DNA from: a virus | IMG/VR virus record: IMGVR_UViG_3300045988_101705 | DNA length: 34,706 nt | Direction: 5' to 3' (one strand) | Shown here: piece after piece, positions 2,586-34,706 of the stretch | Layout: every line of letters starts with the position of its first letter | How positions within the stretch are numbered: position 1 is the stretch's first letter | Notes under the pieces: generated by a model | Told to the model about the DNA's origin: nothing | Seen by the model: the letters and a program-made list of their open reading frames with translations, nothing else | Database searches by the model: none | Position numbers and translations under genes: made by a program

Positions 2586-3389
2586 TCAAAATAATGTCAA
2601 CTGCTGCGCCGTCTTCTCTGTCTTCTGGTTGCACCATATAACTTCCCGGCGCTGCTGCGCATTCTGTGCGTAATTTATCCGTTCTTCCCGGTACCAGTCT
2701 TTCAGGCGTTCTTCGTATAGTGGCGAAGAATAACCGCTGATAATTGCCAGGCCTTTGTGCTGCAGCAATGCTTCCAGTAATACTTCGTGATCCTCGTCCG
2801 TCATTTCATGCCGGTACTGTTTCCGGCATCTGGTAGAAAGAACGTAAGGTGGATCGCAATAGATCAGAACGTTTTCAAAATTGAACTTCTTGATCACTTC
2901 TACCGCCGGGCGGTTCTCTATCTGTACGCCCCGCAGGCGTTCCGCTGCTTCCATTATCTTTTCCGGTATCTTGCACCAGTCCGCGGCCGCGTAGGCCCTT
3001 TCCCTTCCCTAAACGTCCAGTTTCCACCCTACTTTCTCGCCCTGTGTCCTGAACCCGTGGCCCATGTTTAGGCGCGTGTAAAACAGAACTGCTTTTTCAA
3101 GGTCGTTTTCTGGTTCTTTCTGGTATGCCATTTCGTAGGTTTCCCGTGAATATGGTGTAAAGTATATTTCGCGGGCCAGACGTTCCGGATCGTTCCGGAT
3201 CTGCCTGAAAAGGTTTACCACTTCGCCGTCAAGATCGTTTATTGTCTCAATGTCTGATCGTGGTTTATTGAAGAAAACGCCGCCAGAACCGAAGAACGGT
3301 TCTAAATAACTGTGATGTTCTGGAAAGTGTGAAATTATCCAGTCCGCGGATCCCCACTTGCTACCCGGATATTTCATAAGCGCTTTCAC
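2586..3389 (-). pseudogene. D12-class DNA adenine methyltransferase (Dam-like) interrupted by one in-frame TAG
   Basis: The N-terminal part has YPGSKW and EPFFGSGGVFF (FxGxG). The C-terminal part has IYCDPPY. Both parts are in the same frame (3389 and 2954 are both 2 mod 3) and are separated only by TAG at 3009-3011. Confidence 0.8.
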
Positions 3390-3502: not shown

Positions 3503-3946
3503 CTACCCTCTGCGTGTGGCTTCCTCTGCCGCTTCCAGAATACTTTCCGCGGTTACTTCCGGCGGTTCCTTTTCCGTGTTTTCCTGCTCCTGTTCTGTGG
3601 CTTCCTGCTCCTGTTCTGTGGCTTCCTGCTCCTGTTCTGTGGCTTCCTGCTCCTGTTCCGCTTCGTCCTCTGCCGGTCCGAACTTCGCTTCGATCTGCTC
3701 TATCACTCCCTGCAGTCCCTTTTCAAGTTCTTCTGTGTCGAGAGTAACGGCCACAACCGTTCCCGGTTCCTTCGGCGCCGTCTCTTTCTTTCCGGTCATT
3801 GTTTCCCTGATAAACCGGTGTGGAACGTCGCAATTTACGGCGTTCATAAGTGTTTCATACTGTGCCGCCTGCTTTACCAGTGCGAAGAACTCTGAAAACT
3901 TCACTTCGGTTCTGTCCTCTTTTCCGAACACGTCAACTAAACTCAT
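3503..3946 (-). CDS. Acidic protein with EQEQEAT heptad repeats (147 aa)
   Basis: ORF track entry. ATG preceded by GAAAGGAGATCTAACAAA. The repeats are encoded by the 21-bp tandem array. Confidence 0.65.
   Translation of the reverse strand: MSLVDVFGKEDRTEVKFSEFFALVKQAAQYETLMNAVNCDVPHRFIRETMTGKKETAPKEPGTVVAVTLDTEELEKGLQGVIEQIEAKFGPAEDEAEQEQEATEQEQEATEQEQEATEQEQENTEKEPPEVTAESILEAAEEATRRG
3581..3660. repeat. 21-bp tandem repeat, about 3.8 copies (ttcctgctcctgttctgtggc)
   Basis: Three perfect units at 3581-3643 plus a partial unit. The array is in frame within CDS 3503..3946. Confidence 0.9.
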
Positions 3947-10038: not shown

Positions 10039-11847
10039 TTACGCTTTCTTTGCGTAGTCAAGGGAAACCCAACCGTTACGGCCTGCGGCGTAGGCTTTCA
10101 GTAAGCCCCATTTTGAAGCGCCGGGGCCTTCTGCTTCCTCTACGATTGTAAAGGCTCCCTTTCCTGTGTAGACGGGTTTTCCTTCTTTCTTCCAGTAGTC
10201 GAACGTTGTTCCCGGTCCTTTCCTGATACGAAGATCCGAAGTCGTCACGCTCACTTTGTATTCTGCAGCAACCGGCGCCGCCGGTGCTTCCGGGTAGATC
10301 CTGTTTCCGTCGTTGTCAAAGACATAATAACCGGCGTTTTGCTTTGCCAGTTCCACGGCGTTTTCTCTATCCTTAAAGGCTCCGATCTGGCTTGCCGCGT
10401 CCTTCCAGTCCTTTCTTACTCTGAAATAACCGGTTCCCACTGTGCTTGCCTTCTGTTCCGGTGTTGCCTTGAATGAAACATAGTCCGGAACGGCTGTTAT
10501 ATAGGCCGCTGCCCCGCCGTCGTTGATCTGGTACCATTTTTCATCTTTGGAAATTCCGGTAACTGTGAAGGCTGCGCCGTTTTTTACAACCTTCTTCACA
10601 TTTCCGGAAGTGAACGAAGGCGTTGTTCTCACGTTCAGGCCGTCGGATCCGGTATAAATTACCGTTACCGCACCAGAAAGCGCCTTCACGCCCTGCGCTC
10701 CCGTATCTGTAACCGCGGGCGATCCTGTAACTGAAATGTTACCGCCTGCCATGGATGCTTTTACGTCCTTTCTGAACTGATCCATTGTCAGGCCGTACTT
10801 TTTCCAAATATGCTCAACGTCTGCGTGGTTTGTGGCGTACCCGCGGGCGTGTCCTTCCGAATGGGAAAGAATAACGCCGTCTTTCTCCGGGTTCCACCCG
10901 AACTTCTGGCACAAATACGCGAAGTATTCCACGGCGTTTCTGTAATTTTTCAGAACAACCGCTTTCGTGTTGCTGCCGTCGGAAAGTTCGATCCACGACG
11001 CGCCGCCGGTATATTTAATCGTGGCCGGCTCTGTCATTTCTACGCCGATATGGGTATTATTACAACTTCCCTTCGGCCCGCTGCCGCCATGCCAGTTTCT
11101 AACGGCCGTTTTCTTTTCCGGATCGATCGGAAGTCCCACGTAAACTTCCCCGGTGTGCTGAATAACCGCGTGAACGCCGGCGCCGGCGTCTGCGCGGTTC
11201 TCGTTGTTAATTATGTTCATTGCTTTTTCGCAAGGGCAACCGATAGAATGAAGATAAGGGCCGATCGGTTTGATCGTGCGCCCGCCTGTCAAACACGGGC
11301 TTTTCTTCATGGTTGCGTCAATGATTTTAATATTCATATTCTGCCCCGCTTCCTGTGTGTCGTACTGCGTCAAGTTCCATTTTTCTATAATGGAACATAT
11401 TTTTGAAACGTAATTATTGTCCGTCGCATAGCCGCCGGCCTTTACGATCTGGATCGCTTTCTTGTAGTCTCTTTCGCCCACAAGTCCCACATATCGAAGG
11501 ACGCTTCCTTTCTTCGCTCCCGCTAAGTAATCGGAATGATCCTTGATACTTTCGGCCATGCTCTCATATTTTCGGAACGCTGCCGTTATTGTGTAGACTT
11601 CGCCGTTCGGCTTCTGTTCGTTCGTTTCCTTTGTGTAGGTCTGGCCGCCCCAATCGGACGGCCAGTTATTGTCGGAAAGTTCGGCTTTCATTCCGAAAAT
11701 ATTATTCGCGTTCACTGCAAGTTCTCTTGTGCCATACCCGCTTTCAAGTATTCCCTGCGCTGTCGTGAGACTTGCAAGGATCCCTGTTTTTTCCATATTG
11801 GCGCGGGCCTGCTCCCCTAACAGTGAAACAAATTCTTTTTTCGTCAT
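10039..11847 (-). CDS. Multidomain endolysin: N-acetylglucosaminidase + amidase_2 + SH3b-type wall-binding repeats (602 aa)
   Basis: AQGILESGYG...NIFGMK (glucosaminidase), HSIGCP...NTHIGVEMTEP (amidase_2/PGRP type), and C-terminal SH3-like repeats. Start at MTKKEF has an ATGA overlap with the holin stop. Confidence 0.8.
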   Translation of the reverse strand: MTKKEFVSLLGEQARANMEKTGILASLTTAQGILESGYGTRELAVNANNIFGMKAELSDNNWPSDWGGQTYTKETNEQKPNGEVYTITAAFRKYESMAESIKDHSDYLAGAKKGSVLRYVGLVGERDYKKAIQIVKAGGYATDNNYVSKICSIIEKWNLTQYDTQEAGQNMNIKIIDATMKKSPCLTGGRTIKPIGPYLHSIGCPCEKAMNIINNENRADAGAGVHAVIQHTGEVYVGLPIDPEKKTAVRNWHGGSGPKGSCNNTHIGVEMTEPATIKYTGGASWIELSDGSNTKAVVLKNYRNAVEYFAYLCQKFGWNPEKDGVILSHSEGHARGYATNHADVEHIWKKYGLTMDQFRKDVKASMAGGNISVTGSPAVTDTGAQGVKALSGAVTVIYTGSDGLNVRTTPSFTSGNVKKVVKNGAAFTVTGISKDEKWYQINDGGAAAYITAVPDYVSFKATPEQKASTVGTGYFRVRKDWKDAASQIGAFKDRENAVELAKQNAGYYVFDNDGNRIYPEAPAAPVAAEYKVSVTTSDLRIRKGPGTTFDYWKKEGKPVYTGKGAFTIVEEAEGPGASKWGLLKAYAAGRNGWVSLDYAKKA

Positions 11848-12332
11848 TTTGCCGCCCCTTCTTCCTGCGCTGCTACCTCTTCCAGTGTTTCCGGTTCTTC
11901 CGCTTCTTCGTCTGTCGGAAGTTCGTCTGTGTACTTCTGCAGAAATGCCTTTACAGTCTGCCAGATCTTCTTTACTGGAAGGCCGCAAAGATACATATTT
12001 TTCAAAATGCTTATGATCTCATAGGCCACAAAAAGGATCGCGAAGAACTCCATTGTTCCGATCCTGTCTACCGCCATTACTGCGCGCACTTCCTGCGGAA
12101 TGAAGCCGATCAGGTTCACCGCTACAATATGATCCACTGTAACCAGTGCAAGAAGGCAAACTAACATTCCGCATTTTCTGATCGCGCCGTTGATCCCGAA
12201 ATTAGAATTGAACCTTCTTTCCTTGATCGCGCGAAGAACTCCGAAAATCGTATCGATCACCACCGCGATCAATACTAACTGCAAAAATGTGTTTCCCGCT
12301 GCTTCCGCATAGATATGAATTAACTTTTCCAT
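11844..12332 (-). CDS. Holin (phage_holin_4/TcdE-like, 162 aa)
   Basis: Several TM segments, an acidic C-terminal tail, and a position immediately upstream of the endolysin. SD AAAGGTGGTG before ATG 12332. Confidence 0.75.
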   Translation of the reverse strand: MEKLIHIYAEAAGNTFLQLVLIAVVIDTIFGVLRAIKERRFNSNFGINGAIRKCGMLVCLLALVTVDHIVAVNLIGFIPQEVRAVMAVDRIGTMEFFAILFVAYEIISILKNMYLCGLPVKKIWQTVKAFLQKYTDELPTDEEAEEPETLEEVAAQEEGAAK

Positions 12333-12360
12333 GTTTTTCACCACCTTTCTTTTATAAAGA

Positions 12361-12402
12361 TAATAAAAGGAAAGGGCGGCAATTTCTGACCTGTTTTCAG
12401 GC
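12361..12402 (-). promoter_or_regulatory. Candidate late promoter copy a (18-nt motif + 19 nt + TATTAT) upstream of the holin gene
   Basis: Minus strand reads CCTGAAAACAGGTCAGAA-ATTGCCGCCCTTTCCTTT-TATTAT. It shares motif and spacing with copies b and c. Confidence 0.5.
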
Positions 12403-13431
12403 CGTCGCCTTCCTTTCCTTGATTTCTTTTACTTTCTCCTTCGTTTCTTCAATCAGAATATAGCTGTCGGCGTGTTTCATGTGGCCGAACCTGCTTTCGA
12501 TCGAACGGTCGAAGTCTTCCAGTTCTACTTCCCCGGTGTCGAAGGCTTTTAATAATTTCTTTAGGCGCCGCATGGCGTCCTTTCTTACCCTCTTGTGATC
12601 TTTGAAATGAATATACCCTACGAAGTTTATTCCGTTCTTTGCTGCAAGGATCGTTGTCTTCGGGTTCAGTTCCAGTTTTAATTCCCGACGAAGAAATTCT
12701 TCTATCAGTTCCAGAACGTGCCGCAACTCTTCCGGATCCTCTGATAATATTATAAAGTCGTCCATATAGCGAACATAATATTTCATTTTCAGGACGTGTT
12801 TTACATATTGATCCAGTTTGTTCAAGTATACGTTCGCGAATAGCTGTGAAGTAAGGTTCCCGACTGGTATTCCCACACCCGGCGGGAAAATACCGTTGTG
12901 ATCTATGATCCGATCCAGAATTTTCAAAAGTGCTTTATCTGAAATATACCGCCGGATCTCTTTCTTTAATACGTCGTGCGCTACGCTCTGGAAATAGTGG
13001 TGTATATCTCCCTTTATTGCATAGATTTTCTTCCCCTGTACCACTTCCAGTTCATAAAGCCATTTTGAAAGGGTGTCGCTTGCTTCGTGCGCGCCCTTCC
13101 CTTTCCTGCAGGCGTATGAATGGAAAATGAACCGCTTTTCAAAAATCGGTTCAATGATATTTACGATCATGTGTTGAATTACACGATCGAAGAACGGAAG
13201 CGCCATAATAATTCTTTCTTTTGGCTCCCACACTTTGAAAATTCTATACTTTCCCGGCGTATAGTCACCGCTTTGTATGGCGTCTATTGCTTTTTGAAGG
13301 TTGTCTTCCCTGTTCTGCTCAAACTCCAACACTTCCGGGCGAAGTCTTTTACATTTCCGGGCCTTCATGTACGCTTTGATCGCGTTCGGGAAAGTACAGA
13401 TTTTACTTATTAAGTTTTTAATTGTTTTCAT
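12397..13431 (-). CDS. DGR reverse transcriptase
   Basis: IPVGNLTSQLFANVYL (the [LIV]GxxxSQ motif typical of DGR RTs) and the YVRYMDDFIIL YxDD box. Adjacent to TR and avd. The start could be 13431 or 13452. Confidence 0.9.
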   Translation of the reverse strand: MKTIKNLISKICTFPNAIKAYMKARKCKRLRPEVLEFEQNREDNLQKAIDAIQSGDYTPGKYRIFKVWEPKERIIMALPFFDRVIQHMIVNIIEPIFEKRFIFHSYACRKGKGAHEASDTLSKWLYELEVVQGKKIYAIKGDIHHYFQSVAHDVLKKEIRRYISDKALLKILDRIIDHNGIFPPGVGIPVGNLTSQLFANVYLNKLDQYVKHVLKMKYYVRYMDDFIILSEDPEELRHVLELIEEFLRRELKLELNPKTTILAAKNGINFVGYIHFKDHKRVRKDAMRRLKKLLKAFDTGEVELEDFDRSIESRFGHMKHADSYILIEETKEKVKEIKERKATA

Positions 13432-13623
13432 GTTTGCCCTACCGCATTTCACCCCATTTCAGGCCTACTTTTCGGCGGTGCCTTTGTTTTTTCGTCCGGC
13501 TTCTCTCCGGAACGGGAACGGCCTTCCGGCCGTCTGTGCAAACCGTCTGACTATATATTTTGATTATTCATATATAACCCTTGCCGTGGATCCGGAGATC
13601 GCGCGGTCTATGCGATTTTACAA

Positions 13624-13750
13624 GTCACACACGCACCACACGCCAATGTTGCCGTTGACGTTCCACGGGTAATTGTTGGCGTTGACCGCGCGCGAACCGT
13701 CGTGAACGCCGTTGTTCCAATTGCCGCCGCCAATGAGCGCGTGAAGTGCG
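13624..13750 (-). repeat. DGR template repeat (TR)
   Basis: 127 bp aligns with 14248-14374 at a constant offset of +624. There are 13 mismatches, 12 of them at plus-strand T (coding-strand A) of this copy. It is non-coding and lies between avd and the RT gene. Confidence 0.9.
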
Positions 13751-13774
13751 AATTAACGGTTGCCCCAAATTTTA

Positions 13775-14188
13775 TTATTTTCTCTTATTTTCTGCGATCG
13801 ACTTTATCAGGCCGCCGATCTGCGCGCCGATCGCTCCGGTCTGTTTGGCACAATAGAAATAGGCGTCTTTGTTCATGGCTGAATATCCCAGATCGTAAGC
13901 AAGCCGGATCTTTCGTACCAGTCGTCTTTTTAAGCGGTCGGCCGCGTACAAGTGACTTGCTACCTTTGTGATCTCAAACATTTCTATTTCGTCCAGTATT
14001 CCGTCGATACTTTCCCGAATATCCTTTTGCAGCGTGAATTTTTCATAGTGCGGAAATTTCTTCATTTTCTCATGAAGGTACACTGAAAAATCATAGGCCA
14101 TTTGGTGCGCTTCGGTGTGGGTGTAGTCCATTTGTGCGGTTTCCTCTTTCCCCTGCGTCGCGCTTTTACTTCTGCTTTGATATGCCAT
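13775..14188 (-). CDS. avd: Accessory variability determinant (Avd-like, 137 aa)
   Basis: Small, helical, basic protein in the canonical position between the target gene and TR. Sequence includes HQMAYDFSVYLHEKMKKFPHYEKFTLQKDIRESIDGILDEI. Confidence 0.75.
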   Translation of the reverse strand: MAYQSRSKSATQGKEETAQMDYTHTEAHQMAYDFSVYLHEKMKKFPHYEKFTLQKDIRESIDGILDEIEMFEITKVASHLYAADRLKRRLVRKIRLAYDLGYSAMNKDAYFYCAKQTGAIGAQIGGLIKSIAENKRK

Positions 14189-14209
14189 GTTCTATTCTCC
14201 CGGAAAATA

Positions 14210-14232
14210 GGGGCTGCCCTTTCGGGCGCCCC
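14210..14232 (-). promoter_or_regulatory. GC-rich hairpin with a GAAA tetraloop just 3' of VR (DGR target-recognition-type hairpin and/or terminator)
   Basis: Minus strand reads GGGGCGCCC-GAAA-GGGCAGCCCC: 9 bp with one bulged A. It sits 16 nt beyond the VR end and 7 nt beyond the stop codon. Confidence 0.6.
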
Positions 14233-14238
14233 TTCTGC

Positions 14239-15351
14239 TTACTGCGCGTCACACACGCACCACACGCCAATGTTGCCGTGGACGCTCCACGGGTAAACGG
14301 TGGCGCCGACCGCGCGCGAACCGTCGCGACCGCCGTGGTTCCAATGGCCGCCGCCAAGGAGCGCGCGAAGTGCGGTATTTGACGGAATATAGGCGTCACC
14401 ATAGCCCGCGCCCAGTACGTCGTACCAGTTCCACGCGGAAGCCGTAGGATCCAGACAAAATTCATCAAGCCACTTCCAAACGTTACCCACCAGATCGCGG
14501 ATATTAAGCGCCGAAATAGCGTTCGCAACATATCCCGTTTTCTGGCGTCCAGTGTTTCCGGTTGCGCTCCATGCGTAGGTGTTGTTTGCGTCCTGACCTT
14601 CCGGGGATCCTGCTGCCGCCTGACAAAATTCTGCATAGGTCGGAAGTCTCTTTCCTACGCGGCGGGCTTTCTCGTTTGCAATATACCAGTTCAGGCCTTC
14701 CGTTCCGGTGATCGGGTTCGCGTTATACTTCGACTGCAGGCCCTGACTTCCATTGTCGGAAGAAAGGTAAATATCGCCCCACAATCCATTCCCAAGGTAA
14801 ACCATGCCGGAAGGATCGTCGCACTTCGGGCGGTGCTTTGTGGTCCATACGCTGTTCGGAATAATTCCGTTGTATACGTTGCCCTGCCAACCGCTGCCGT
14901 TTTCTGTTCCGCTGCTGTTGATCGGGTTTCCAAGTGCGTTCACATAGCGACACTTTCCATAATGGAAACCACCGATCTTTCTGCTGTTGTCTGCTGTGTA
15001 CCCGGAAGGGTAAGTGGAATTTTTAGAAATTACAAAAACTTCGTCGCGGTCCACGGTGTCGGATCCGTTGGTCGGATCGCAACAATAAATATAATAGTCC
15101 GTTCCCATTTCAAACCCGGAACCAGTGTCAAGGTTTGCCGTTGTAAGGTTTGTTAATACGGTTTTGAATACAGAAGAACCGACGGCGATCAGGACGCCGG
15201 CCGCGATCGTGATCTGGTTCGGTGTGGCTGCTCCCGCTGCTGTGATATACTGCGCCTTCTGTGATACAATGTCGCTCATGGCTGACAGTTTTTCCGTGGT
15301 GATCTTTGCCTTCGTGTTCATCATTGTTTCATCATAAAGAAAAAATTTCAT
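14239..15351 (-). CDS. DGR target protein, tail-module receptor-binding candidate with FGE-sulfatase/C-type-lectin-like C-terminus (370 aa)
   Basis: C-terminal VR, a GNVWKWLDE motif (GNVWEW-type, FGE/CLec fold) and a position after the fibre genes. SD AAAGGAGAAAAACAC before ATG 15351. Confidence 0.8.
   Translation of the reverse strand: MKFFLYDETMMNTKAKITTEKLSAMSDIVSQKAQYITAAGAATPNQITIAAGVLIAVGSSVFKTVLTNLTTANLDTGSGFEMGTDYYIYCCDPTNGSDTVDRDEVFVISKNSTYPSGYTADNSRKIGGFHYGKCRYVNALGNPINSSGTENGSGWQGNVYNGIIPNSVWTTKHRPKCDDPSGMVYLGNGLWGDIYLSSDNGSQGLQSKYNANPITGTEGLNWYIANEKARRVGKRLPTYAEFCQAAAGSPEGQDANNTYAWSATGNTGRQKTGYVANAISALNIRDLVGNVWKWLDEFCLDPTASAWNWYDVLGAGYGDAYIPSNTALRALLGGGHWNHGGRDGSRAVGATVYPWSVHGNIGVWCVCDAQ
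14248..14374 (-). repeat. DGR variable repeat (VR)
   Basis: Cognate of TR. Encodes the last 42 codons (ALRALLGGGHWNHGGRDGSRAVGATVYPWSVHGNIGVWCVCD) before the final AQ-stop of the target protein. Confidence 0.9.
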
Positions 15352-15367: not shown

Positions 15368-15805
15368 TTACTGCTGCAGGTCTGCTTTGATTGCTTCCAG
15401 TTCTTCTTCCGTCATTCCTAACGTGTCGTAAACGGAAGGTGTGTTCGTGATCTTGATTGCTTCGGAACCGGCCGCGATCGTTCTCGAAAGTGTGATCTTT
15501 GTCTTTTCCTTCTCTGCCTTTCCGGATCCGTCCGGTTCTCCGTCGATATGCTCCACGCTCTGAATGGTTGCAGTTACGCCGCCGGCCGTAACCTTTGCGC
15601 CTGCTGCCGCTTCGTTGCAATATGTAACCGTCACCGTCTTTTTATCCTCTGATAATTCGCGGATCGGGCAAATAATAAAATTCTGGTTTTCGATCGCTTC
15701 GATTGCTTCCAGAAGGTCGGCCGCCTGCAACTGTCCGGCGTCCACCATGTCTTTACAGTTCTTCACGTCCTGCGCTGTTTTTAATACTTTCGGGAATCCT
15801 TTCAT
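15368..15805 (-). CDS. Hypothetical tail-module protein (145 aa)
   Basis: ORF track entry between the fibre-like gene and the DGR target. Confidence 0.6.
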   Translation of the reverse strand: MKGFPKVLKTAQDVKNCKDMVDAGQLQAADLLEAIEAIENQNFIICPIRELSEDKKTVTVTYCNEAAAGAKVTAGGVTATIQSVEHIDGEPDGSGKAEKEKTKITLSRTIAAGSEAIKITNTPSVYDTLGMTEEELEAIKADLQQ

Positions 15806-18814: not shown

Positions 18815-21706
18815 TCAACCCCCCTGTAACTGTAAAACCATGTTTCGGGTTGCGTTTCGTGTCTGGCGGGCTGTCTCATACGGCGAAAGGGCCTTCGGGC
18901 TTGTAATGTTGACATTCTGAACAAAACTTTTCCCGCCGCCTTCTGCTGTTTCAAGTGCCGTATTCCTTGCCGAAGCCGTAAGCGGTGTTACAACCGCTTC
19001 GCCGTTCACCATCTGGATCAACTCCGGGCCTGCTTCTGCCATAATGGCTTGACCGTTTTTCAAAACGCCGCCCTTTGCCAGACGCGGAAGTGATACTTCG
19101 CCAACGTGTCCGATACTTACGCCCGGAATATCGTTGATAACGTCGATCGCGCCGTTAATGAAGCTGATCGCCTTATTCACCGCACGTTCTGCGGTTGCAA
19201 GGGCGTTGTTCATGGCTGACTTGAAGGCGCCGCCGATTGCTTCACCGATATTTGTTCCGACATTTGTAAAAATGCCCTTGATCGTGTTCCAGATCCCCGA
19301 AAAGAAGGATCCAATATTGCTAAACACGTTTTTAATATTCGTGTATGCTTCCGTGAATTTTGTGTAAAACCATGATCCAACCGTTGAAAATACGGACTTA
19401 ATATCTGTGTATCTATCGTTGAACCACTGGCCGATCGCGGAAAATACGTTTTTCACGTTCGTATAGGCATTTTGAAACATGGTTTGAAACCACGTCGCCA
19501 CGGTTGACAGGGCGTTTTTAATGTCCGTCCACCTGGCCGCGAACCACTGGCCGATCCCCGAAAAGATCGTTGTTATTGCCGTGTAGGCTGCGCGGAACTT
19601 GTCCGCAAACCACGCGCCGACGCCCGAAAAGATCGAAACAATCCCGGACCATATATCAGAGAAAATTTTCTTCACATTGACGCCGAACGTCTGAAAGAAT
19701 GTGATTATATAATTCACTACCGCCGTTATAAGATTTTTCACAATCTCAATCAGGTTTTTCAGTGCTGCTTCTATGTACTGGCTGAACCCGTCCAGATCGC
19801 CCCGGAATAGTGCCATAAATGCGCTAATAATGTTACTTACAAAGTCGATCGCATTTTTCACCGCTGAAACGATCGGCGCTACTGCTGAAAGTGCGCCCTG
19901 TATCACCGCCATAACGTAGGTCGTGAAAAACTGGAATACAGGCTTCAATTTTTCCATTAAATTTTTGAAACTTTCGCCCAACTGCTGCAAGATCGGTTTT
20001 ATTTTCTCGATTGTTTCCGAAACGCTCTTTTTAATCTCTGCGAAGGCTTTATCTACCATTTCGCGGAACCAGTCGCACTTCTTATACATCAATACGAAGC
20101 CCGCCACAAGCGCCACCACGGCCGCGACAACGGCCCCGATCGGGTTTGCTGATAAAATAGCCCACAAGCCTTTCCCGGCCGTTCCTGCCGCCTTGAATAC
20201 GCCCGATATTTTAGAAAATGCCCCGATCGCCTTCGATACTCCCGAAGAAAGTTTCCCGAAAATAATTAAAGCCGGCCCGATCGCTGCCACTACCGCGCCA
20301 ATCTTTACGATCGTTTCCTTCTGCGTGTCGTTCAGGTTCTTAAACCACTGTGAAAAGGCTTTTACCTTTTTCACCACGCGTTCCAGAGCTGGCGTTGCTG
20401 TCTGCATTAAGGTATTTCCAAGATCTGCGCCTGCTACTTTCAAATTGTTAAGCGCAACTTTTGCCTGATCTGGCGGATCCAGTGTCGCGTTGAATGTGTC
20501 TTCGACTACGTTTCCGTAATCTGATAAGGCGCCGGAAAGATCGTCGATAGAAAGGCGGCCTTCCCTGATCGCCTGCGTCATTTCTGCGGCGCCCTTCTTT
20601 CCGAATAACTCCGTCGCTGCCTGCAGTGCGTCTGTTTCGCTGCTTGCGTTTTTGATCTTCTCGATCGTTTCGCCCAGTGCGTCTTTTAGATCCTTTCCGT
20701 CCGCTGTCGCGTTCTGCTGCGCCTTCTTCAATCCTGCAAGCGCTGTTGTGGCGTCCACGCCGTTCGCTTCAAACTGTGCAAGTAAATTTACCGAAGACGT
20801 GAGATCAAGGCCCATTTCCTTTAATGTGGCGCCGTTGGTCTGTAATGTATTCTGCAGCGTGTCCATGGAAATTCCCGTGTCTTGCCCTGCTTTTGTAAGA
20901 AGGCCCAACACTTCGCCGGTGTGGCTGCTGTCAACGCCGAATTTCGTCATTATGGCGTCTACGCTGTCGATCGCGCCGTTTAAGTCCGTTCCGTTGATCT
21001 CTGAAAACTGAATGAATTTTGAAGAAAGGTCTTCAAGTTCTTTTCCGGTAGAACCGAAGCGGGTGTTTACCTCTCCGATCGCAATTCCGGCCGTTTCCGC
21101 TTCTGTTGGAAGCGAAGTAAAAACGGCGTCCATACTGTCTTGTAAGCCGTCCAACGCTTCCCCAGAAGCGCCCGTTTTTGTTATGATCGTATCGTAACCG
21201 GCGTCTAATTCATTAAATGCCGCGATCGAAGCGGTCCCGATCCCTGCGATCGCTCCTGTCACTGGAAGAAGTTTCTTTCCCAGTGCTTCGGACTTTTCGC
21301 CAATCTTTCCGGCGATCTCTCCCACCTTTTCAAGTGTTGAATTGCTGTCCTCTGCTGCCGTTTTCAGGTTTTTCAGGTCTGCTTCTGTCTTTACGATCTC
21401 TCTTTGCAAAGCCCGGTACTGTTCTTCCGACACTTCGCCGTTTTCAAACTGCTTCTGAACCTGTGCTTCTGCCGACTTCAAAACGTCCAGTTTTTCAGAA
21501 GTAGCGGCCACGGCTTCTTTTAGAAGCGTCTGTTTCTGTGCCAGAAGTTCCGTATTTTTCGGATCCAGTTTCAGGCCTTTTTCGACTTCTTTTAATTCTT
21601 TCTGCAGATCGCGCGACTGTTTATTGACGCCCGAAAGGGCTTTATCTAACTTCGTAGTGTCGCCGCCGATCTCAATGGTAATTCCTTTTATTGTGCTTGC
21701 TGCCAC
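18815..21706 (-). CDS. Tail tape measure protein (963 aa)
   Basis: Largest ORF, with a coiled-coil N-terminus, TM-like central block and repeated FSxIGxWF units. GTG start. Confidence 0.9.
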   Translation of the reverse strand: MAASTIKGITIEIGGDTTKLDKALSGVNKQSRDLQKELKEVEKGLKLDPKNTELLAQKQTLLKEAVAATSEKLDVLKSAEAQVQKQFENGEVSEEQYRALQREIVKTEADLKNLKTAAEDSNSTLEKVGEIAGKIGEKSEALGKKLLPVTGAIAGIGTASIAAFNELDAGYDTIITKTGASGEALDGLQDSMDAVFTSLPTEAETAGIAIGEVNTRFGSTGKELEDLSSKFIQFSEINGTDLNGAIDSVDAIMTKFGVDSSHTGEVLGLLTKAGQDTGISMDTLQNTLQTNGATLKEMGLDLTSSVNLLAQFEANGVDATTALAGLKKAQQNATADGKDLKDALGETIEKIKNASSETDALQAATELFGKKGAAEMTQAIREGRLSIDDLSGALSDYGNVVEDTFNATLDPPDQAKVALNNLKVAGADLGNTLMQTATPALERVVKKVKAFSQWFKNLNDTQKETIVKIGAVVAAIGPALIIFGKLSSGVSKAIGAFSKISGVFKAAGTAGKGLWAILSANPIGAVVAAVVALVAGFVLMYKKCDWFREMVDKAFAEIKKSVSETIEKIKPILQQLGESFKNLMEKLKPVFQFFTTYVMAVIQGALSAVAPIVSAVKNAIDFVSNIISAFMALFRGDLDGFSQYIEAALKNLIEIVKNLITAVVNYIITFFQTFGVNVKKIFSDIWSGIVSIFSGVGAWFADKFRAAYTAITTIFSGIGQWFAARWTDIKNALSTVATWFQTMFQNAYTNVKNVFSAIGQWFNDRYTDIKSVFSTVGSWFYTKFTEAYTNIKNVFSNIGSFFSGIWNTIKGIFTNVGTNIGEAIGGAFKSAMNNALATAERAVNKAISFINGAIDVINDIPGVSIGHVGEVSLPRLAKGGVLKNGQAIMAEAGPELIQMVNGEAVVTPLTASARNTALETAEGGGKSFVQNVNITSPKALSPYETARQTRNATRNMVLQLQGG

Positions 21707-34499: not shown

Positions 34500-34706
34500 A
34501 ATTCACCCCGCCTTTCTGTCTCTGATAAGCATTGATCCACGGCCCGAAGGTCTATACTGCTAATAATGCCTTTCCGGGCCATGGCTGCGGTTTGTATCGC
34601 TTCCACGGCCAGATCAAGGGCTGTTTTATAAATGCCTGTTAATTCTTCGTGCAGTGCTTCCGGATCGTGGTTTTCTTTCACGCCGATCCAGAAATTATTC
34701 ATTAAA
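34496..34706 (-). CDS. 3' part of the wrap-around gene that starts at 277 (34588..34706 duplicates 1..119)
   Basis: Same reading frame across the circular junction. Stop TGA at 34496-34498. Confidence 0.6.
   Translation of the reverse strand, partial: LMNNFWIGVKENHDPEALHEELTGIYKTALDLAVEAIQTAAMARKGIISSIDLRAVDQCLSETERRGEL
34588..34706. repeat. Terminal overlap copy 2 (identical to 1..119)
   Basis: Same as copy 1. Confidence 0.95.

Follow-up and report, generated by a model that had tools for sequence, protein, structure and literature searches.

A BPP-1-type diversity-generating retroelement, probably active, in a temperate siphovirus of human-gut Lachnospiraceae

Here, we describe a diversity-generating retroelement (DGR) in IMG/VR record IMGVR_UViG_3300045988_101705, a DNA sequence of 34,706 nucleotides that was analyzed over its whole length (hereafter, the window) and that belongs to a temperate siphovirus of human-gut Lachnospiraceae. 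The element lies on the minus strand behind the tail genes and ahead of the holin and endolysin genes, in the order target gene, avd, template repeat (TR) and reverse transcriptase (RT), and the target gene ends in a variable repeat (VR) that differs from the TR almost exclusively at TR adenines. All the parts of a DGR are present and intact, the change is adenine-specific, and the elements acting in cis are conserved with covariation. At the sequence level, every feature that marks membership in the DGRs was found, and the features that mark group II introns, retrons and defense RTs were not. We conclude, with a probability of about 0.93, that the cassette is a canonical, working DGR of the type known from phage BPP-1.

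The repeat pair and the proteins of the cassette

The main parts of the cassette, in window coordinates, are as follows.
12397..13431, minus strand: DGR RT, 344 aa from the ATG, with an alternative GTG start at 13452
13624..13750, minus strand: TR, non-coding, with 26 adenines in 127 nt
13775..14188, minus strand: avd (accessory variability determinant), 137 aa, assigned through PHROG 3206, a family profile and hhalign
14239..15351, minus strand: DGR target gene, 370 aa, encoding an Mtd-like tail protein with the Mtd second domain and a C-terminal FGE-sulfatase/C-type-lectin-like domain
14248..14374, minus strand: VR, the final 42 codons of the target gene before Ala-Gln-stop

The segments 13624-13750 and 14248-14374 were returned by the repeat finder as a gapless direct repeat of 127 nt with an offset of 624. 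Re-alignment yielded 13 mismatches, 12 of these at adenines of the minus (coding) strand of the TR (hypergeometric p = 5e-9 for 26 A in 127 nt). In the frame of the target, all 12 adenine mismatches occupy codon positions 1 or 2, and the affected codons, seven Asn (AAC/AAT), two CAC and one ATT, are converted to codons for H, S, V, T, G, R, H, H, L and R. No substitution of a TR adenine can produce a stop codon, and the coding capacity of a TR-templated VR amounts to about 6.3e14 peptides. Two occurrences of the 21-nt repeat 3' terminus were counted in the window (0 expected), so that there is one TR and one VR; neither the repeat search nor the search with the repeat 3' end detected a second VR or a remote target in the window. 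A preliminary description of this DNA, made from the letters and a list of open reading frames (ORFs), had given the same coordinates for the ORFs and both repeats, the same gapless alignment at +624 and the same mismatch counts, all of which were reproduced by recomputation, and had named mismatches not biased to TR adenines as one finding that would speak against it; the re-alignment shows the bias. Its list of altered residues was exact, and it had put the Asn codons of the TR at seven, which is the number changed in the VR of the window, whereas the TR read in the VR frame contains nine.

The RT carries IPVGNLTSQLFANVYL and YMDD, with VGNLTSQ as the DGR-type [LIV]GxxxSQ motif. It was matched by Pfam RVT_1 (2e-24) and PHROG 1423 (1.9e-128), and its best match among solved structures was bRT, the RT of BPP-1 (8ub7, 2.4e-55, residues 11-335), followed by group II intron RTs (about 1e-17 to 1e-18, the best at 4e-18) and by retron RTs (1e-4 or weaker). 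When the PDB alignment was read against the published description of the bRT structure, the equivalents of K29, F66, R74, I76, D138, G182, Q187 and D215/D216 were found to be kept, with I181 replaced by Val. The neighbors of the RT gene encode Avd, the tail protein and the holin.

The Avd protein was assigned by PHROG 3206, ‘Avd protein of DGR’ (2.2e-16). As a single sequence, it produced no direct match in the PDB, and its AlphaFold model was too poor for a fold search, so that profile methods were used instead. With a profile of 15 Avd family members, the Avd of BPP-1 was the sole match in the whole PDB (4dwl at 2.9e-4, and 8ub7_B), and hhalign gave a probability of 93.3%. Judged from a single sequence, Avd is the weakest of the protein assignments.

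The target protein matches Pfam mtd_2nd above the cut-off (7e-33, residues 40-156), Pfam FGE-sulfatase (1e-6, 29 bits against a cut-off of 23.3) and PHROG 11262, ‘tail protein’ (1.1e-72), and it aligns over nearly its full length with the crystal structures of BPP-1 Mtd, 1yu0-1yu4, the best being 1yu4 (1.6e-16, residues 37-368 on 68-376). Its gene is the last of the tail module, right behind those for Dit, a Gp37-like protein and structural proteins. Judging from this homology and gene position, the target is probably a receptor-binding protein. An alternative is that the DGR is real and its target serves some other role on the virion surface or in the lysogen, with a host glycan, mucus or an immune factor as the ligand. 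DGR targets with the C-type-lectin fold have varied ligands, the function proposed here is read from homology and gene position, and the N-terminal 36 residues have no counterpart in Mtd; nevertheless, the homology extends over the full length of Mtd, the tropism determinant of BPP-1, the PHROG assignment is to a tail protein, and the gene closes the tail module, all of which makes the alternative unlikely.

The proteins and their arrangement thus agree with what had been read from the letters, namely, an RT with the [LIV]GxxxSQ and YMDD motifs (for which bRT proved the best structural match, at 2.4e-55 against 4e-18 for group II introns), Avd in the 137-aa ORF, a target of the FGE-sulfatase/C-type-lectin type with a GNVWKW motif (present in the ORF translation), and a cassette inserted between the tail genes and the lysis cassette in the BPP-1 order mtd-avd-TR-brt.

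VR turnover among relatives

Relatives of the element were located by an RT search that left the VR unconstrained. Eight IMG/VR contigs with 99-100% RT identity were recovered, seven of which carry both a TR and a VR; together with the window, these seven loci form a near-identical set (n = 8) that is 95-98% identical over 3.6 kb. The VR is different in each of the eight genomes, and 98 of the 102 TR-to-VR mismatches are at TR adenines. In the six genomes that align without gaps, one of the 127 columns of the TR is variable (0.8%) compared with 28 of the 127 columns of the VR (22%), the flanking genes have 2-5% variable columns, and the gap between the VR and avd has none (0/59). A ninth genome, that of isolate L081, has all of its mismatches at TR adenines (9/9). 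The same pattern extends to the wider family, where, among 68 loci with a TR/VR pair (>=105 nt, <=20 mismatches), nearly all the mismatches fall on TR adenines.

A pattern scan of metagenomes identified 39 human-gut contigs. Combined with the earlier loci, these provide 43 copies of the TR, of which 41 are identical and two have one change each, and 33 copies of the VR, of which 32 are distinct. The pattern barred non-A changes in the final 75 nt, and hence only the first 52 nt were counted for adenine bias: of the 153 mismatches in this part, 149 are at adenines, which make up 11 of the 52 positions. The unbiased data for the adenine bias are therefore this segment of the metagenomic copies and the set found through the RT. 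A synonymous third-position adenine, in a GCA codon, is altered in 10 of the 32 VRs, a frequency close to that of the other adenines, which points to mutation, not selection on the protein, as the source of the pattern.

An invariant TR next to a VR that differs in nearly every sample argues that the element is active in nature. Furthermore, genomes only 2-5% apart each possess their own VR with the TR identical in 41 of 43 copies, so that turnover of the VR appears to be fast relative to genome divergence. The preliminary description had predicted heterogeneity confined to the positions that are A in the TR, and this is the pattern seen in the between-sample comparison.

The substitution spectrum at TR adenines, compiled from the VRs of the family (366 changes), comprises 68% A>G, 17% A>T and 15% A>C. 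Differences at other bases (T>G, C>A and C>G) account for approximately 1-4% across the family, each in a single genome.

RNA and DNA elements around the repeats

The cassette also contains the following elements, with window coordinates.
14248..14270, minus strand: IMH-like (initiation of mutagenic homing) 3' end of the VR, TTGGCGTGTGGTGCGTGTGTGAC, identical in the TR at 13624-13646
14209..14233, minus strand: GC-rich hairpin/cruciform with a 10-bp stem (nine G-C), one bulged A and a GAAA loop, then a T-run
13756..13766, minus strand: 5' flank of the TR, GGGGCAACCGT, the upstream strand of a predicted long-range RNA duplex with the spacer
13432..13623, minus strand: spacer of 192 nt between the TR and the RT gene, predicted to be part of the DGR RNA, with the four elements that follow
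13584-13606, minus strand: tetraloop hairpin with a UCCG loop and bulged bases, 17 nt after the TR
13572-13579 with 13549-13556, minus strand: A/U-rich hairpin
13518-13533, minus strand: lineage-specific inserted hairpin, ACGGCC-GGAA-GGCCGT, which interrupts the long-range duplex
13507-13511 with 13495-13499, minus strand: hairpin, then an A-run at 13481-13494

The RNA structure was assessed on an alignment (A3) of the TR flanks and spacer from 18 diverged relatives, using a hand-drawn structure guided by RNAalifold. In the resulting model of 28 pairs, 96.4% of the cells are paired, as opposed to 32-59% when the partners are slid by 1-3 columns, and 16 pairs show compensatory changes; the observed values were reached in none of 500 shuffles. 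The TR-flank duplex, in which GGGGCAACCGT pairs with 13541-13546 and 13514-13518, consists of 11 pairs with 94-100% of the cells paired across the 18 sequences and with compensatory changes in five of the 11. The tetraloop hairpin 3' of the TR formed in 9 of 10 diverged sequences that were folded separately, with UCCG or UACG loops.

In BPP-1, the ribonucleoprotein structure determined by cryogenic electron microscopy (cryo-EM) contains an Avd-binding stem-loop with a UNCG or GNRA tetraloop directly 3' of the TR. It also has a ‘cPRT Stop’ duplex, in which the two TR flanks pair with each other and after which come a stem-loop and adenosines. The same RNA features have been predicted in 207 other DGRs (bioRxiv 10.1101/2023.10.23.563531). 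The RNA layout in the window agrees with these features, the GGGGCAACCGT duplex corresponding to ‘cPRT Stop’, and the covariation found here independently supports the generality of the BPP-1 architecture.

Two other foldings were considered and set aside. The minimum-free-energy fold of the spacer alone, with its long-range structure, was unsupported by the family alignment and was dropped in favor of the covariation-based model. A GTTA/TGAC pairing proposed by RNAalifold spans the artificial junction left by excision of the TR and was rejected for the pairing of 13756-13761 with 13541-13546, which shows compensatory changes. The inserted hairpin at 13518-13533 is limited to this lineage, L009 and L010; different insertions occupy this site in L011, L083 and L048, and the other subfamilies lack any.

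The repeat 3' terminus, TTGGCGTGTGGTGCGTGTGTGAC, is G/T-rich, and its single A is never changed. Of the 32 VRs, 10 differ from the TR at adenine A103 and none at A125, which is located two bases before the homology ends; this places the 3' limit of information transfer within the A-free block TTGGCGTGTGGTGCGTGTGTG. We infer that TTGGCGTGTGGTGCGTGTGTGAC is functionally equivalent to the IMH of BPP-1, although no IMH/IMH* difference could be defined inside the repeat.

The GC-rich hairpin at 14209..14233 begins 14 nt past the end of the TR/VR homology and 5 nt past the target stop codon, and folds as DNA with -12.7 kcal/mol (z = -2.45). A hairpin is found after the VR at the same place in all the subfamilies, with stems that differ yet stay complementary and with GAAA, GGAA, GGGA or AAAA loops. 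Homing of the BPP-1 DGR requires a GC stem of 7-10 bp with a 5'-GRNA loop at 4-34 bp from the VR, and the same hairpin has been noted in a prophage of Eubacterium rectale, a member of the Lachnospiraceae (PMC3240598). The hairpin of the window agrees with the published BPP-1 values in the length of its GC stem, its GRNA loop and its distance from the VR.

Two relatives contain an altered VR. In the metagenome-assembled genome (MAG) UMGS1206 (L082), the VR at 3060-3184 has a 2-nt deletion that changes GGTTCGCGCGCG to GGTGCGCGCG, with a frameshift of the final ~30 target codons that results in a 366-aa ORF; either genuine decay or an error in the consensus of a population with mixed VRs may account for this. 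In IMGVR_UViG_3300045988_107758 (L079), a 61-nt tandem duplication at 3116-3235 extends from the final part of the VR through the stop codon and across the 5' arm of the hairpin. The junction is within the GAAA loop, the copies differ only at TR-adenine positions, and the hairpin is intact in the second copy only. This arrangement could be an aberrant homing product, that is, a footprint, or an assembly artefact, and it is a long shot that the family here preserves a natural trace of how the DNA step of DGR homing takes place. If the duplication is real, it would suggest opening of the target DNA at the hairpin loop and possible joining of cDNA there, and the same would hold for the element of the window, which has the same hairpin.

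Alternatives, the phage genome and related elements

Several observations weigh against a canonical, working DGR in the window. The thirteenth TR/VR mismatch is not at an adenine (T>G, VR 14330 against TR 13706, which produces V341G), as is the case for 4 of about 370 differences in the family, and the metagenome pattern was itself partly constrained to adenines, as noted above. The matches of Avd to Pfam bAvd (3e-9) and NCBIfam DivGenRetAVD (4e-10) are significant yet both under the curated cut-offs, and the single-sequence AlphaFold model of Avd, with four helices, has low confidence (pLDDT 52.8). The scan for promoters found no prominent sigma-70-like promoter upstream of avd-TR-RT, and the priming nucleotide and the template-primer duplex were not located with duplexfold, the predicted partners being inconsistent among relatives. 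Finally, VR differences between samples speak for activity in the lineage, not in one population, nor do they speak for its rate or timing.

The last point leaves room for a fossil DGR, once active and now silent in this phage, in which case the between-sample differences would be old inherited polymorphisms. The frameshifted VR of L082 and the rearranged one of L079 can be taken as decay within the family, and the promoter scan gives no clear promoter. Nevertheless, all the ORFs are intact, the residues for catalysis and adenine mutagenesis are kept, purifying selection acts on the RNA and hairpin elements, in which compensatory changes occur, and genomes that are only 2-5% apart have different VRs next to an almost unchanging TR; we consider a fossil very unlikely. 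That the cassette is no DGR at all, its RT being that of a group II intron, retron or defense system and the 127-nt repeat having arisen separately by duplication of the tail-gene 3' end, is scarcely credible: the best NCBIfam match of the RT is indeed group_II_RT_mat (TIGR04416), PADLOC reports many DRT-class matches, and such RTs are often labeled ‘retron-type’ in GenBank phages, but the NCBIfam match, at 149 bits, covers the RT part only and is far under the cut-off of 300, the NCBIfam retron and Drt matches are all far under theirs, the PADLOC matches reflect generic RT similarity, no group II, retron or DRT match comes within about 37 orders of magnitude of the bRT match, the IGxxxSQ-type motif is present, the RT ORF stops after the thumb with no maturase or endonuclease extension, the Rfam scan of the window detected no RNA family and hence no group II intron or retron RNA, and a plain duplication would not diverge solely at the adenines of one copy.

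For the working DGR, we propose the following mechanism by analogy with the known system. The RNA of the avd 3' end, TR and spacer would fold into a scaffold composed of the TR-flank duplex, the tetraloop hairpin and further hairpins, with the tetraloop hairpin just 3' of the TR probably binding Avd. The RT-Avd complex would then copy the TR into cDNA in a self-primed reaction, misincorporating opposite template adenines, and the cDNA would replace the VR, guided there by the A-free block at the repeat 3' terminus and the downstream GC hairpin with its GAAA loop. The last 42 residues of the Mtd-like tail protein could in this manner take about 6e14 sequences, never with a stop codon. Diversification of the VR most likely retunes receptor binding, and the altered VR would allow the phage to switch tropism.

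The window has an exact direct terminal repeat of 119 nt (1-119 = 34588-34706) and is accordingly a complete genome, circular or terminally redundant, with a length of 34,587 bp. The minus strand encodes, in order, the terminase, portal, protease and major capsid protein, then the tape measure, Dit, Gp37-like protein, two structural proteins and the DGR cassette, and last the holin and a glucosaminidase-amidase-SH3 endolysin, whereas a gene for a large serine recombinase is on the plus strand. This phage also occurs, at 99-100% RT identity, as an integrated prophage in the genome of a cultured human-gut member of the Lachnospiraceae, MGYG-HGUT-00092 (L081), and in MAG UMGS1206. These two genomes are representatives of two different GTDB species, and their VRs differ; the presence of one phage in both hints at a host range that spans species. 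More distant versions of the whole cassette were found in Diplocloster, Petralouisia, Acetatifactor and many Lachnospiraceae MAGs. A megablast search of the cassette against GenBank phages produced no match, and in a protein search, the closest RTs in deposited phage genomes, those of Bacillus phage BalMu-1 and Clostridium phage Saumur, were 42-44% identical. The promoter/terminator scan returned nothing exceeding the shuffled expectation.

Other features of the genome were recorded along the way. Immediately upstream of the target gene, a 145-aa ORF (15368-15805, minus strand) has no Pfam or PHROG match; it keeps its position in close relatives and may thus encode a tail fibre assembly or adaptor protein. 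The endolysin ORF (10039-11988, minus strand), with glucosaminidase, amidase_2 and SH3 domains, was called by the program from a TTG start at 11988 and overlaps the holin ORF (11844-12344, minus strand) by 145 nt; the real start is probably the internal ATG preceding MTKKEF. In the early/lysogeny region, a 21-nt unit, TCCTGTTCTGTGGCTTCCTGC, occurs in four to five tandem copies within overlapping ORFs (3567-3671), where the minus strand probably codes for a repetitive acidic segment. The tape measure gene (18815..21706) contains four diverged 39-nt repeats at 19270-19635; internal repeats are frequent in tape measure proteins.

The closest described system is the prototype DGR of BPP-1, which has the same gene order. 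Its bRT and Mtd are the best, and its Avd the only, solved-structure matches of the window proteins, and the VR scaffolds of Mtd and the target are alike (GG.W.., GSRA, NIG and VCD). Both elements have a GC hairpin with a GAAA loop after the VR, and their RNAs share the tetraloop hairpin just 3' of the TR and the TR-flank duplex; cDNA synthesis in BPP-1 begins inside the TR, a parallel to the 3' transfer limit within TTGGCGTGTGGTGCGTGTGTG. In contrast to BPP-1, the phage described here is a siphovirus with a serine recombinase whose host belongs to the Gram-positive gut Lachnospiraceae, and its proteins are diverged, such that the RT match is clear, Avd is detectable by profile only and the N-terminal domain of the target cannot be aligned with that of Mtd. 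Further differences are the spacer of 192 nt compared with 140 in BPP-1, the lineage-specific hairpin inside the long-range duplex, the A-free repeat 3' end, which is G/T-rich compared with a (G/C)14 tract in BPP-1, and the Val at the bRT I181 position. With group II intron RTs, the RT of the window has the fingers and palm in common; unlike group II introns, the element has a TR/VR pair and Avd and is without an intron RNA match or maturase or endonuclease domains.

Published accounts already include DGRs of the same architecture from Lachnospiraceae prophages, namely, the prophage DGR of Eubacterium rectale DSM 17629 (Fig. 5 of PMC3240598) and that of Clostridium clostridioforme LM41 phi3, with an FGE-sulfatase protein, Avd and RT (PMC11318856). 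Listed or annotated in those papers and compared here by description, they share with the window the host family, the prophage setting, the arrangement FGE-sulfatase-type target-Avd-RT and the GRNA-loop hairpin. The uncultured relatives (IMG/VR uncultivated virus genomes, MGYG-HGUT-00092 and UMGS1206) belong to the same lineage, with 95-98% nucleotide identity over the cassette, an identical TR and a different VR in each. DGRs are common in gut phages and large DGR surveys of these genome collections exist; to our knowledge, none of these relatives has been described individually.

No new principle is involved, given that temperate gut phages are well known to carry DGRs with Mtd-like targets. 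The value of this element is that of a very clean natural example, with a complete genome of 34.6 kb that is also present as a prophage in the cultured isolate MGYG-HGUT-00092. The phage, whose VR differs in almost every human sample and which is present in the representatives of two GTDB species, may use its DGR to move between Lachnospiraceae hosts. The complete genome and the cultured isolate, together with a TR that is fixed across dozens of human samples and a VR that differs in nearly every one, make this phage a convenient system in which to study tropism switching driven by a DGR in Gram-positive anaerobes of the gut.

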